DNA of 64,000 nucleotides from Planctomycetota bacterium (GCA_031423015.1 JANPER010000150.1:3330-67329), one strand, 5' to 3'. Positions 29,276 to 35,743 are shown, counted from the stretch's first letter. Translations and numbers: made by a program. The notes: generated from the letters alone by a model not told the origin.

Positions 29276-32200
29276 ATGGCTGAACATCACGCAGGTGACG
29301 GCAGCGCCGCCGCTGATGCGGCCGCGACCGACATCGCCATCGTCGGCATGGCCTGCCGCGTGCCCGGCGCCAACAACGCGCGCGAGTTGTGGGCCAACGT
29401 GCGCGGCAAGGTGGAGTCGATTCGGCGTTACACCGACGACGAACTGCGCGCCGCCGGCGTCGAGGAGGCGCTGCTCGCCAACCCCAACTACGTGCGCGCC
29501 GGTGGCTCGCTCGATGCGATGGAGATGTTCGACGCCGGCTACTTCGGCTTCGGACCGCGCGACGCCGCGATCATGGATCCGCAGCACCGGCACTTCTTGG
29601 AGTGCTGCGTTGAAGCGCTGGAAGACGCTGGCTTGCCGCCGGCGCGCTTCAAGGGCGCGATCGGTCTGTTCGCCGGCTGCGGCATGGGCGCCTACTTCGC
29701 CTACAACATTCTGACGCAGCCCGACCTGCTCGAGAACGTGGGCTTGTTCTTGCTGCGGCACACCGGCAACGACAAGGACTTCTTGGCCACGCGCGCCTCG
29801 TACTGCCTGAACCTGCGCGGCCCGTCGGTGTCGGTGCAGACCGCGTGCTCTACGTCGTTGGTCGCGGTGCACCTCGCCTGCCAGAGTCTGCTGGCGATGG
29901 AGTGCGACATGGCGCTCGCCGGCGGCGTCACCATCGAGCAGCCGCACCGGCACGGCTACTTGTTCAAGGAGAACGAGGTGCTGTCGCCCGACGGACACTG
30001 CCGCGCGTTCGCGGCCGAGTCCAAGGGCACCGTGCTCACCAGCGGTCTCGGTGTCGTGGCCGTGCGCCGCCTGGCCGACGCGCTGCGCGACGGCGATCCG
30101 ATCCACGCGGTGATCAAGGCTACCGCGGTCAACAACGATGGCTCCGGCAAGGTGGGCTACCTGGCGCCGAGCGTCGATGGCCACTCGGCGGTGGTCGCCG
30201 AGGCGTTGGCGCTGTCGGGGATCGACCCGGAGACGATCACGCTGTTCGAAGCGCACGGCACCGGCACGCAGGTGGGCGATCCGATCGAGATCGCGGCCCT
30301 CACCCAGGCCTATCAGGCGCAATCCAAGAAGACGAGCTACTGCGCGATCAGCTCGCTCAAGACCAACATCGGTCACCTCGACACGGCGGCTGGCGTTGCC
30401 GGCTTGATCAAGGTCGCCAGCGCGCTGACCCACAAGGAGCTGCCGCCGAGTCTGCACTTCGACCAGCCGAACCCGATCATCGACTTTGCGACGAGCCCGT
30501 TCTACGTCAACACCGAGTGCACGGCGTGGCCGCGGGGTGCGACGCCGCGGCGGGCGGGGCTGAGTTCGCTCGGCGTCGGCGGCACCAACGCGCACGCGAT
30601 TGTGGAAGAGGCTCCAGCCGCCAAGACGACGGCGTTGGCTGAGCCATGGCAGCTCCTGCTGTTCTCGGGCAAGAGCCAGCGGTCGGCGGAGGGCAACGTC
30701 GAGCGTCTGCGCCAGCACCTGCAAGCGCAGCCGACGCTGAACCTCGCCGACGTCGCGTTCACGTTGGAAAGCGGCCGCGAGGCGCACGTTCAGCGCCGCG
30801 CGTACGCGGTGCGCGATGCAGCGCACGCCGTCGAGGTGTTGCAGAGCAAGGACGCCAAGGTGCTCGCGTCCGGCGCCGCGCAAGAGCGCGAGCCGAGCGT
30901 AGTGTTCATGTTCCCCGGCGGCGGCGCCCAGTACGTGGGCATGGGGCGCGACCTCTACGCGCGCTACCCGGTGTACCGGCAAGCGATCGACCAGTGCCTC
31001 GACGTGCTGCGACCGCTGCTGCCCGAGGATCTGCGCCCGCTGCTTTTCGCGGCGCCGGGCGAGGGCGACGCCGCCGAGCGCATTCAGGGCCCGCTGGCGT
31101 TGCCGGTGTTGTTCGCCACCGAGTACGCCCTGGCTCAGCTGTGGATGTCGTGGGGCATCGAACCCGCAGCGATGACGGGCCACAGCCTCGGCGAGTACAC
31201 CGCGGCGTGTTTGGCCGGCGTCATGTCGCTGCCCGACGCACTCGCGCTGGTACTGCTGCGTTCGCGCCTGCTGACCACGGTGCCGACCGGCGCGGTGCTC
31301 AGCGTGCCGCTGCCGGAGAGCGAAGTGCGACCGCTGCTGGGCGTGGAGTTGTCGCTGGCGGCGGTCAACGGCCCGGAGCTGTGCGCGGTGTCAGGCCCCG
31401 AACACGCAGTGGCGGCGCTCGAAGCCGTGCTCGCCGCGCGCGACGTCGAGGGCCGACGGCTGAAGATCTCGGTGGCCGCGCACTCGGCGATGCTCGACCC
31501 GATCCTCGACGAGTTCCGCGCCGGGGTGCGCAAGATGAAGTTGCAGGCGCCGAAACGTCGCTTCATCAGCAACCTCACTGGAACCTGGGCCGAGGCCAGC
31601 GAGGTGACTTCGCCGGAGTATTGGGTGCGCCACCTGCGCCACACGGTGCGCTTCGCCGACGGCATGGCGACGCTGATGGCCGACAAGCACCGCGTGTTCC
31701 TCGAAGTCGGGCCGGGCACGACGATGTGCACGCTGGCGCGCATGCAGCGCGCCAAGGCCGCCACGCACGAGGTGATCGCCTGCTTGCGGCATCCGCAGGA
31801 GCCGGCCGACGACGTGCAGTTCCTGTTGACGGCGCTCGGGCGCGTGTGGTGCGCCGGCAAGAACCCAGACTGGAGCATGCTGCGCGGCAAAGCGCCGCGG
31901 CGCCGCCTGTCGCTGCCGACCTACGCGTTCGATCACCAGCGTTACTTCATCGAGCCGGGCAAGCGCGCGTTGGCGGGACTCAACACCGACCTCAGTCTGA
32001 CGCGCATCGGCGACGTACGCGATTGGTTCCACCGGCCGAGCTGGCATCCGTCCGCGTTGCCGCCGGGTGGCGTGGCGGCAAGCACGCGCTTCGTGTTGTT
32101 CCTCGACGAGGACGGTCCGGGCGAAGCGCTCGCCGAGAAGCTCGGCACGCGTGGCCACCAGGTCGTGCGCGTGATGCGGGGACCGTCGTTTCAGAGCGTC

Positions 32201-35200: not shown

Positions 35201-35743
35201 AGCCCAGAGATGCCGACGCGCAGCCGGCTCGAACGCATGCGTCTGCATGCGCGGCGACTGGTGGCGCAGGGCCCGAGCTATGCCTTCGAGAAGCTCAAGG
35301 CGCGCGTGGTGAGCAGGGAACTCTGGCAGCTGCGTCGCTTGGTGTTGAAGCCGCTGTCGAAGCTGTTCCCGTACCACTTCCGCAGCGAATCGATGGTGTT
35401 CTCGTGGATCGACGCGTTCACCCGCTACGAGCCCAAACCGTGGAACGGGCGGGCGCACTTGTTCCGCGCGCGGTTGGACGACGCCATCGAGTGGAGCGGG
35501 ATCAAGCTGGAGAACGACCTCGGCTGGCAACACCTGGTGCAGGAGTTGGCGGTGGCGGAGGTGACCGGCGACCACAACTCGATGTGCGAGGAGCCGCACG
35601 TTCGCGTGCTCGCGGATCGGGTGCGCGCGTGTCTCGACGAGGCGAACCAGCGCATGACCAAGAAGACGCCGCCGCCCGCGCCGCCGCAGCACGGCACACG
35701 CGCCCCGGTCGCACCTGGGGTGCCGACCGGAGCCCGCGCTTGA
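29276..35743 (+). CDS. Type I polyketide synthase, KS-AT-KR-DH-CP-TE
   Basis: It starts 6 nt after the NRPS stop.
- KS: DIAIVGMACRVPGA, active-site Cys in VQTACSTSLVAVH (Cys codon 29846-29848), EAHGTGTQVGDPIE and NIGHLDTAAG.
- AT: FMFPGGGAQY and GHSLGEYTAA.
- KR: YLITGGLGGIGLA ... DYIAANAF.
- DH, downstream of KR: LDEHRIKGGRALVPGTGY.
- Carrier: FFQLGGQSLVAV (Ser codon 34670-34672).
- TE: GGYSGGGTAAFEMA. Confidence 0.92.
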   Translation: MAEHHAGDGSAAADAAATDIAIVGMACRVPGANNARELWANVRGKVESIRRYTDDELRAAGVEEALLANPNYVRAGGSLDAMEMFDAGYFGFGPRDAAIMDPQHRHFLECCVEALEDAGLPPARFKGAIGLFAGCGMGAYFAYNILTQPDLLENVGLFLLRHTGNDKDFLATRASYCLNLRGPSVSVQTACSTSLVAVHLACQSLLAMECDMALAGGVTIEQPHRHGYLFKENEVLSPDGHCRAFAAESKGTVLTSGLGVVAVRRLADALRDGDPIHAVIKATAVNNDGSGKVGYLAPSVDGHSAVVAEALALSGIDPETITLFEAHGTGTQVGDPIEIAALTQAYQAQSKKTSYCAISSLKTNIGHLDTAAGVAGLIKVASALTHKELPPSLHFDQPNPIIDFATSPFYVNTECTAWPRGATPRRAGLSSLGVGGTNAHAIVEEAPAAKTTALAEPWQLLLFSGKSQRSAEGNVERLRQHLQAQPTLNLADVAFTLESGREAHVQRRAYAVRDAAHAVEVLQSKDAKVLASGAAQEREPSVVFMFPGGGAQYVGMGRDLYARYPVYRQAIDQCLDVLRPLLPEDLRPLLFAAPGEGDAAERIQGPLALPVLFATEYALAQLWMSWGIEPAAMTGHSLGEYTAACLAGVMSLPDALALVLLRSRLLTTVPTGAVLSVPLPESEVRPLLGVELSLAAVNGPELCAVSGPEHAVAALEAVLAARDVEGRRLKISVAAHSAMLDPILDEFRAGVRKMKLQAPKRRFISNLTGTWAEASEVTSPEYWVRHLRHTVRFADGMATLMADKHRVFLEVGPGTTMCTLARMQRAKAATHEVIACLRHPQEPADDVQFLLTALGRVWCAGKNPDWSMLRGKAPRRRLSLPTYAFDHQRYFIEPGKRALAGLNTDLSLTRIGDVRDWFHRPSWHPSALPPGGVAASTRFVLFLDEDGPGEALAEKLGTRGHQVVRVMRGPSFQSVGKQRYVLNPAERSDYDALLEELARIEFVPEHFVHLWLARGKASHESAAKALETSEVVGFYALLSLAQALAQQDPDGKLRLTVVTEGAQRVFDEPLPHPERAMVLGPVQTIPRELSQVSARWVDVQIPVQRWKRRFDPRPATARTLVEQLAAELVATVDEQIVALRPLGRFVQEIETVAIPPVSQPLPVRAGGAYLITGGLGGIGLACARWLAGQAKVGIALLSRTGLPPRAEWQGYRGNSADDAVALAVRAVEELEAAGAKVVIVRGDVGDPAHTVRAVAEARAALGPIRGVLHGAGVIADALIAQKRPESAARVLSPKVRGTLNLEAALADEPLDFFVAFSSTSTVLGLPGQIDYIAANAFLDAFAQSRQRADGPHFLALGWGVWAEVGMAVQAARQGVPVDARDSGHPWLGRIVCDTPQMTRYEARYVADELWMLDEHRIKGGRALVPGTGYLEIARAALHKGAPNTSLELSDLTFLAPLDVDDVGGVDVRVDLQRDRGTFELTVGARAEGETAWRECARGHLAFGTDVSPKPLDIEAIAARCNKSTKTFGAYAQETRQEKHLDFGPRWKVLRKVQLGVNEGLALLELGREYADDVANVPLHPALLDLGCHFGLPLIEGYEQQDALFVPLSFGRVRVFRPLPARVLSYVRLAKSSRAADDIVTFDVTFASEDGTVLVEIERFVVRRMHDRAGISARRPATVRDPAESADARNGGGDELLRETLRHGIRPPEGTDALGRVLAYRVGPTIMVSPLRLAALRQRVDRDTAPKVEGGNKFARPELESSFLAPRTAVEKQLAELWQEVLGVDRVGIADDFFQLGGQSLVAVRLLSKMKKLWAVDLPLATFFEAPTVEKLAAVVQAELGTDAESAAAAGKPVPRSSRRGWSTLVPIQPRGARVPFYCAAGQGGNAMNLRHLAVHLGEDQPFYGLQARGVDGRMQPHETVEAMAAEYIADIRRFQPHGPYLIGGYSGGGTAAFEMAQQLHAMGEEVAALVFLDSHSPEMPTRSRLERMRLHARRLVAQGPSYAFEKLKARVVSRELWQLRRLVLKPLSKLFPYHFRSESMVFSWIDAFTRYEPKPWNGRAHLFRARLDDAIEWSGIKLENDLGWQHLVQELAVAEVTGDHNSMCEEPHVRVLADRVRACLDEANQRMTKKTPPPAPPQHGTRAPVAPGVPTGARA

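Follow-up and report, generated by a model that had tools for sequence, protein, structure and literature searches.

The stretch of DNA considered here, referred to below as the window, is 64,000 nt from a Planctomycetota bacterium (GCA_031423015.1, JANPER010000150.1:3330-67329). At positions 29276–35743 it contains a polyketide synthase (PKS) gene, flanked by a nonribosomal peptide synthetase (NRPS) gene upstream and a phosphopantetheinyl transferase (PPTase) gene downstream. The PKS gene is exactly one reading frame of 2155 aa with an ATG start. Pfam and NCBIfam place its domains, all on the plus strand, in the order ketosynthase (KS), acyltransferase (AT), structural subdomain of the ketoreductase (KR), KR, dehydratase (DH), carrier and thioesterase (TE). 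A sequence-only reading of the same DNA had proposed this order, and every motif that it quoted is present: GHSLGE (S637), GGLGGIG (1173–1179), YIAANAF (Y1331), LDEHRIKGGRALVPG (H1415), LGGQSL (S1799) and GYSGGG (S1946).

The KS (29327–30463) matches Pfam at residues 18–396 (E 4e-68 and 2e-38) and is followed by a KS-AT linker at residues 398–524 and the AT (30902–31840; residues 543–855, E 9e-49). The linker or structural region of about 300 aa reported earlier corresponds to the post-AT linker together with the KR structural, or pseudo-KR (psiKR), subdomain (32021–32575), which is recognized by the NCBIfam KR prefix NF047870 at residues 916–997 and by Pfam PF21394 at residues 949–1100 (E 2e-16), and is colinear with DEBS module 1. 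Next come the KR (32774–33364; residues 1167–1363, E 1e-52) and the DH (33425–34279), the latter matched in two parts at residues 1384–1482 and 1535–1668 (E 5e-16 and 3e-22). The only PP-binding match in the protein (34589–34777; residues 1772–1834, E 1e-12) and the TE (34907–35650; from residue 1878, E 2e-21) complete the module. As the domain E-values range from 1e-12 to 4e-68, chance is not an issue. All catalytic motifs are intact and are conserved in an alignment of 21 full-length relatives with 48–80% identity, among them the KS residues C191, H327 and H367, and GHS[LM]GE with R662 in the AT; motif counts in distant relatives, given below, were taken over 49 representatives. Three antisense open reading frames (ORFs) of 563–811 aa overlap the PKS gene on the minus strand (28748–31183, 31391–33082 and 33287–35692); such ORFs are usual for DNA of 68–70% GC and we treat them as non-coding.

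The KR at residues 1167–1363 precedes the DH at residues 1384–1668, so that the DH lies C-terminal to the KR, as had been suggested. The earlier reading also raised the possibility of a canonical DH concealed between the AT and the KR, but Pfam and NCBIfam give no DH signal in residues 856–1166, and residues 18–1368 align in one colinear stretch with the DH-less DEBS module 1 (7m7j). As this alignment is unbroken, a DH could not be accommodated in the AT-KR interval, and a hidden DH is ruled out. The other possibility raised, that the region called DH has a different fold or is a pseudo-domain, is ruled out by three kinds of evidence. In phmmer searches of the PDB the region matches solved PKS DHs with E-values of 1e-17 to 1e-13 over 270 of 287 residues. 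An AlphaFold model built from a 13-sequence alignment has pLDDT above 90 across the double hotdog DH, and the modelled domain superposes on the Brevibacillus trans-AT DH3 7zmf (Foldseek TM 0.90) and on CurK, PksJ DH1 and CurF. Finally, H1415, P1425, LxFGPRW, and HPALLD with D1584 (H1588 follows in the window protein) are kept in the 21 relatives, which bears out the His/Asp dyad. The nearest relatives of this DH, by sequence and fold, are trans-AT and curacin-type modular DHs.

Preceding it, the KR retains TGGxGGxG (TGGLGGIG in the window protein) and the Ser, Tyr and Asn residues (S1318, Y1331 and N1335) in the 21 relatives. Its stereochemistry motif is of the LDD type, LDD being the family consensus at the position where the window protein has I1274-A-D1276, and this points to a B-type KR. 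A B-type KR and a DH form the standard dehydrating pair. An alternative is that the position next to the carrier allows the DH to do a non-standard job, instead of or besides beta-dehydration, such as vinylogous loss of an alpha-hydroxyl or formamide, double-bond isomerisation or ring formation. It draws on the His motif, which carries one extra residue throughout the family (HxxxxGxxxxP, 1415–1425; window 33518–33550), on the Q/H of DxxxQ/H, which is conserved only within the Planctomycetota group, on the bifunctional GphF DH1 and AmbDH3 among the solved relatives, and on a substrate that would be expected to bear a gamma-heteroatom substituent. However, the DH keeps canonical, conserved motifs (GPRW and HPALLD) along with its catalytic His and Asp residues, and the KR and DH make a standard pair; we consider this explanation improbable.

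The permuted order is not confined to this protein. A word-indexed search with the DH and the linker that follows it returned only 16 short fragments, and we therefore rely on an exhaustive phmmer search with the same query against 1.84 billion protein representatives, which found 6354 relatives, 746 of them with E <1e-30. Domains were mapped in the best 150 of the 6354. Among these, 107 have a KR followed directly by the DH with no KS between; 56 of the 107 also have an AT, and 38 are full-length KS-AT-psiKR-KR-DH-carrier(-TE) proteins. A further 23 are AT-less multi-KS proteins of trans-AT type in which the DH directly follows a KS, mostly as KS-DH-KR, with some DHs lacking an adjacent KR, and the other 20 are DH-only or DH-carrier fragments. 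None of the best 150 combines an AT with a DH placed before the KR. Two apparently stand-alone DH-carrier proteins (P0130 and P0136) proved to be contig-end cuts or split from an upstream KS-AT-KR gene. The KR-DH-carrier module also occurs internally in multimodular hybrids (P0009, P0192, P0237, P0241 and those at loci L003 and L004): P0009 is KS-AT-KR-ACP-KS-AT-KR-DH-carrier, with ACP an acyl carrier protein, and P0192, P0237 and P0241 run on past the carrier. A literature search for published KS-AT-KR-DH(-ACP) examples yielded no real case, just papers in which the domains are listed by order of function.

Between the DH and the carrier there is a short helical element of about 50 aa (34343–34495), seen as a conserved block in the family alignment (GIxPxEGxxAxxRxL...VSxLxL) and as three helices with pLDDT 55–67 in the model. 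By eye, a similar element directly follows the KR in the DH-less module 1 of the bimodular P0009, and the DH therefore looks as if it was inserted between the KR and this linker.

The carrier had been described as resembling the peptidyl carrier protein (PCP) of an NRPS on account of its LGGQSL motif, and this extends to overall similarity, as NRPS PCPs are its best PDB matches at 53–59 bits per domain whereas PKS ACPs score about 38–43. Its active-site S1799 lies in FFQLGGQSL in place of the GxDS motif of PKS-type ACPs; FF[EQ]LGG[HQ]SL is kept in the 21 relatives and LGG[HQ]SL in 41 of the 49 distant representatives. The resemblance also embraces the TE. The C-terminal 465 residues match best to PCPs and PCP-TE pairs of PvdL, AB3403 (4zxh, aligned over 86–448), LgrA, SrfA-C and EntF, the TE aligning with the AB3403 and EntF PCP-TE. 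The nucleophile elbow noticed earlier as GYSGGG (S1946) is kept as G[YF]SxGG in the 21 relatives, as are D1973 and H2100 of the triad. By these similarities both the carrier and the TE are NRPS-type.

Elsewhere, a KR followed by a DH is familiar chiefly from the iterative polyunsaturated fatty acid (PUFA) and enediyne synthases, and the sequence-only reading had taken the order as a hint of an iterative or otherwise non-canonical PKS. The non-canonical part of that claim stands (domain order, PCP-type carrier and NRPS-type TE), but the likeness to PUFA and enediyne enzymes is not supported. PUFA and enediyne synthases are iterative and have their ACP or ACPs between the AT and the KR. The window protein has no ACP ahead of its KR; its KS-AT scores 1049 bits on the NCBIfam modular PKS_plus_SDR profile and 363 on the PfaA profile TIGR02813, for which the cut-off is 1010; and the best PDB matches of the KS-AT are modular (8xju, DEBS, CurL and MAS), with no enediyne or PUFA structure among the best 60. 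On the ACP position, the profile scores and the PDB matches, rather than on a tree with curated references, we reject such kinship. The KS alone matches 4wky (569 bits), 4oqj (521) and 8xju (495), after which there is a gap to ClbC (390) and DEBS (354); the 617 bits of 7zma is the sum of two KSs. 4oqj and 4wky are probably the first two KSs (OzmQ and OzmN) of the formylglycine-primed oxazolomycin line, an assignment of use as a lead only. Over 63% of the query, the KS-AT-KR part is 45–47% identical to DH-less bimodular PKSs.

Iteration as such deserves separate consideration. The single-module PKSs of polycyclic tetramate macrolactam pathways act iteratively, as do enediyne PKSs (PKSEs), and the window protein might similarly perform several rounds on a glycine-derived starter, with the TE freeing a conjugated polyene acid. 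This would suit a very compact cassette with one module that has a KR and a DH, no enoylreductase (ER) and a terminal TE, as well as the position of the DH. However, the modular profile scores, the lack of an ACP before the KR and the finding of the same KR-DH-carrier module inside multimodular hybrid proteins, which argues for one extension per module, tell against it, and no iteration-specific sequence feature was found. We regard iteration as unlikely, if marginally less so than a non-standard role for the DH.

The extender unit is less clear. GHSLGE had been read as a sign of a malonyl-type AT, a weak call as the second specificity motif is VAAH (733–736; window 31472–31483) rather than HAFH or YASH. 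Among the distant representatives [VI]AAHS occurs in 37 of 49 and HAFH in only 3. At residues 603–609 (window 31082–31102) the AT has LALPVLF in place of xTQPALF, the usual Gln being gone, a feature that the family likewise keeps. The closest solved ATs, both of which carry AAHS, are 5yda (247 bits), probably the SpnD AT (again only a lead), and ZmaA, specific for hydroxymalonyl-ACP (243 bits), ahead of the malonyl-specific CurL (210) and DEBS (150–180). Because of the VAAH motif and these closest solved ATs, the malonyl assignment is insecure. A substituted extender (alkyl-, hydroxy- or methyl-malonyl) would change the product, giving it an alpha-branch or alpha-oxygen, and leave the architecture the same. 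This is a possibility that we hold only tentatively, although it is appreciably more probable than the two alternatives above: there are no crotonyl-CoA carboxylase/reductase or FkbH-type genes in the cassette or the window, and specificity calls from AT motifs are unreliable outside actinomycete PKSs.

The NRPS gene directly upstream encodes a loading protein (24479–29269, plus strand; Pfam and NCBIfam) composed of a formyltransferase (F) domain, a possible relic region, a glycine-type adenylation (A) domain split by a monooxygenase (MOx), and a PCP. Its ORF opens at GTG 24308, giving 1596–1653 aa depending on the start; the start is likely ATG 24479, and the orthologues have 1548–1590 aa. 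The F domain (24695–25384; Formyl_trans_N 1e-16, Formyl_trans_C 1e-7) has an [IV]NFHDGPLP motif that is kept in orthologues. The following interval of about 270 aa (window 25421–26218, residues ~372–637) has no Pfam match, and its sole, weak PDB match (E 0.25) is to the C-terminal half of the Txo1 condensation (C) domain, reaching as far as the C-A junction; the interval could be what is left of a C-domain lobe. The A domain is in two parts, motifs A1–A4 (26219–26878; AMP-binding, residues 638–857) and A5–A10 (28046–28879; AMP-binding and AMP-binding_C). Inserted after A4 is a luciferase-like FMN monooxygenase (26963–28015; Bac_luciferase 3e-48), which scores 510 bits on TIGR04020, the MupA/Atu3671 family, with a cut-off of 244. 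The specificity residues, beginning with D-I-L read from SFDISVLE, give DILQLGMVWK, which we take to be a glycine-type Stachelhaus code. DILQ[LM]GM[IV]WK is found in 50 of 57 complete orthologues, the other seven deviating at position 5 alone (Y, C or F), so that positions 1–4 and 6–10 are conserved in all 57. The PCP (28967–29158; PP-binding 9e-13) ends the protein. A likeness of the NRPS to SolG proved to be limited to the ordinary A-PCP part and is uninformative on the MOx.

Only 6 nt separate the NRPS stop from the PKS ATG, and the TTG start of the Sfp-type PPTase gene (35740–36450, plus strand; 4PPT_N 2e-21, ACPS 9e-16 in Pfam) overlaps the PKS stop by 4 nt (TTGA), a position kept in many loci. 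The PKS gene is translationally coupled to both neighbours. A divergent alpha/beta-hydrolase gene (23410–24265, minus strand; Pfam Abhydrolase_4/Hydrolase_4) precedes the NRPS gene. As listed, its ORF reaches 24774 and overlaps the 5' extension of the NRPS ORF, so that both starts are probably internal, near 24265 for the hydrolase and at ATG 24479 for the NRPS. A homologue lies in the same divergent position at three Planctomycetota loci (L002, L005 and L007), and the hydrolase is possibly an accessory gene. Pfam scans find no tailoring genes in the rest of the window, which is of housekeeping character (SNF2 helicase, GH2, thiolase, acyl-CoA dehydrogenases, two T2SSE ATPases, LysR, S8 peptidase and aldehyde dehydrogenase). 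The T2SSE ATPase gene pair (window 17439–19863) is also found upstream in the Planctomycetota metagenome-assembled genome (MAG) BC2.135 (L002, 1–1838), synteny that supports the window being of Planctomycetota origin.

Using the DH alignment as query against a single genome from each species, we confirmed at least 585 relatives and mapped the domains of the best 80 loci. Most of these 80 loci with enough flank share the NRPS and PKS pair. The exceptions are three loci (L046, L067 and L072) where only a plain A-PCP precedes the PKS, and some ten more without an NRPS match in the available flank. The three are from Acidobacteriaceae and Dormibacterota, and are KS-AT-KR-DH-PCP-TE variants in which the preceding A-PCP lacks F or MOx. 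The cassette spans about eight phyla. Carriers include Planctomycetota (Pirellula, Planctomicrobium, Brocadiaceae), Chloroflexota/Anaerolineae, Myxococcota, one Spirochaetaceae MAG (Spirochaetota) and, in the Alpha- and Betaproteobacteria, Methyloligellaceae, Sterolibacteriaceae, Erythrobacter, Hydrogenophaga and cultured Rhodobacteraceae (Ruegeria, Thalassococcus, Litoreibacter, Pseudorhodobacter, Sagittula and HTCC2150). Both proteins are colinear end to end across phyla at 42–48% identity; against Ruegeria profundi the PKS is 43.5% identical over 2149 aa and the NRPS 44.7% over 1573 aa, and the PKS domain string is identical in every Rhodobacteraceae locus. The closest relatives, at 70–80% identity, are in Planctomycetota MAGs with the same flanking synteny.

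The gene order differs between lineages, being NRPS-PKS-PPTase in the window and PKS-GT2-NRPS-PPTase in Proteobacteria. With the Ruegeria GT2 (a glycosyltransferase) as query, tblastn finds the GT2 gene in 37 of 84 loci and none in the window. It sits between the PKS and NRPS genes in Proteobacteria and after the PPTase gene in Myxococcota, and in Ruegeria profundi (L043; 12301–13311, 19095–20588) a Wzy_C (O-antigen ligase-like) gene follows. The association with GT2 and Wzy_C hints at a link to the cell surface. In eight Chloroflexota loci (L001, L008–L011, L014, L015 and L017) the cassette is set among more NRPS genes; in Anaerolineae these comprise two C-PCP-TE proteins on the upstream side and, on the downstream side, A-PCP-C-A-PCP and C-A-PCP-TE proteins, although the PKS retains a TE of its own.

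A cluster of NRPS, PKS, glycosyltransferase and PPTase genes with an uncharacterised product has been reported as conserved in 28 of 57 roseobacter genomes (PMC4337385, which cites Martens et al.), and in 2023 its product continued to be given as unknown (PMC10584327). We looked in the literature for more recent work that identifies the product and found none. The window gene is the Planctomycetota member of a widespread orphan cassette already noticed in roseobacters.

What might this module be, and what might it do? The reading that we favour, to which we give about even odds, is that the ORF encodes the single extension-and-release module of a compact line made of two proteins, the NRPS and the PKS, and a PPTase, and that it is not a PUFA- or enediyne-type enzyme. 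Judged by its sequence relationships the module is a mosaic drawn from three lineages, with a KS-AT-psiKR-KR scaffold like that of DH-less cis-AT modules, a trans-AT or curacin-like DH, and a PCP and TE of NRPS ancestry, because the KS-AT-KR part is most like DH-less PKSs, the relatives of the DH have the layouts described above, and the PCP-TE matches NRPSs. The order would be permuted because the DH was added on the C-terminal side of the KR.

The domain layout, the integrity of the active sites, the coupling of the genes and their conservation are shown by the sequences; the chemistry that follows is inferred. The PPTase would prime both carriers, the upstream A domain would load glycine, and the F domain would N-formylate the glycyl thioester. 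The embedded luciferase-like MOx would then oxidise the glycine alpha-carbon, giving an N-formyl-alpha-hydroxyglycyl thioester, or a glyoxylyl thioester once the formamide is lost. There is precedent for these steps, as an F-A(Gly)-PCP loader delivers formylglycine to a KS in the conglobatin and oxazolomycin pathways (PMC4504003), the assembly-line monooxygenase of myxothiazol hydroxylates the alpha-carbon of glycine, as summarised in PMC9396620, and alpha-hydroxylation by an assembly-line luciferase-like monooxygenase is known (PMC8739492). The KS would accept the glycine-derived starter, the AT would place one malonyl-type extender, possibly substituted, on the PCP-like carrier, the B-type KR and the DH would generate an (E)-2-enoyl thioester, and the TE would free a small 4-substituted but-2-enoate or its lactone.

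Several points weigh against the single-extension reading and its chemistry. The VAAH motif and the closest solved ATs, 5yda and ZmaA, speak against a plain malonyl extender, while genes for making extender units are absent from the window (Pfam scans) and from the conserved cassette. The timing and regiochemistry assigned to the MOx step are by analogy only. Extension cycles cannot be counted from sequence, and a solitary KS-AT-KR-DH module that ends in a TE might act repeatedly. As the TE-ended PKS stands beside more NRPS genes in Chloroflexota, certain lineages may use the acid that it releases only as an intermediate, and no family member has a known product in the roseobacter reports (PMC4337385, PMC10584327).

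It is conceivable, though on balance we doubt it, that the cassette makes very small and reactive metabolites from glycine that form a class not described before, such as a 4-formamido-4-hydroxy- or 4-oxo-but-2-enoate or its butenolide. Glycine on the loading carrier would be N-formylated and also oxidised at its alpha-carbon by the flavin-dependent enzyme, and the permuted KS-AT-KR-DH-PCP-TE module would then extend it once. If so, the spread over hundreds of species in about eight phyla would point to a general physiological role, for instance as a signal or in modification of the cell envelope, which the GT2 and Wzy-like neighbours in Proteobacteria would suit better than they would a niche antibiotic.

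Whatever the product, the permuted order is not a one-off but belongs to a large uncharacterised family of PKS modules, to judge by the 746 cluster representatives with E <1e-30, and annotation rules that presume a DH before the KR are affected by it. The make-up of the module, with parts from three lineages, indicates that a DH placed behind the KR and beside a PCP-type carrier can be functional, which is useful for module engineering. We found no published description of the permuted mosaic architecture or of the loading chemistry in the literature searched. The roseobacter orphan cluster, known for almost 20 years, is now linked to Planctomycetota, Chloroflexota, Myxococcota and Hydrogenophaga, and the chemical hypothesis for it is concrete and testable; cultured carriers include Ruegeria profundi, Litoreibacter ascidiaceicola DSM 100566, Pseudorhodobacter ferrugineus DSM 5888 and Hydrogenophaga pseudoflava.

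Among known systems the roseobacter orphan cluster is orthologous to the window cassette end to end in both NRPS and PKS, with identical domain strings and an adjacent PPTase gene, although it includes a GT2 gene, absent from the window, which instead has the divergent hydrolase gene. The loaders of conglobatin (Cong) and oxazolomycin (OzmO) share with the window NRPS an F-A-PCP organization, a glycine code and a place directly upstream of a KS (PMC4504003). They differ in that the window A domain is split by the MOx and feeds a single reducing module with a TE rather than a long PKS. Among the window ORFs scanned with Pfam, without a reference sequence as query, none resembles an ATP-dependent cyclodehydratase of the OzmP/CongE type, the enzyme for oxazole formation, and the mapped cassette loci share no further conserved gene. 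In MtaG and MelG, of myxothiazol and melithiazol biosynthesis, a glycine A domain likewise has a luciferase-like MOx after A4, and this type of MOx is thought, as summarised in PMC9396620, to hydroxylate the glycine alpha-carbon; however, these are terminal C-A(MOx)-PCP-TE modules involved in amide cleavage, whereas the window protein is an F-fused starter module that feeds a PKS.

As regards the PKS, PfaA (KS-MAT-ACPn-KR-DH) and PKSE (KS-AT-ACP-KR-DH-PPTase) also have a DH C-terminal to the KR on a polypeptide without an ER, but they are iterative and carry their ACP or ACPs before the KR, whereas the only carrier of the window protein follows the DH and the PPTase is a separate gene. A canonical KS-AT-DH-psiKR-KR-ACP module, such as CurK or DEBS module 4, has the same catalytic set and active-site motifs and a KS-AT of the same modular type, and the window DH superposes on those of CurK and CurF; there the DH lies between the AT and the psiKR, however, and the window module differs further in its PCP-type carrier, NRPS-type TE and VAAH motif. 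The closest DHs, by both sequence and fold, are those of trans-AT systems (Brevibacillus BGC11 DH3 7zmf, PksJ DH1 and C0ZGQ6/7), and in the protein library the DH relatives from outside the family belong to multi-KS proteins without an AT. There the DH comes after a KS and, in most cases, ahead of a KR, whereas in the window protein it follows the KR, in a module that has an AT of its own.

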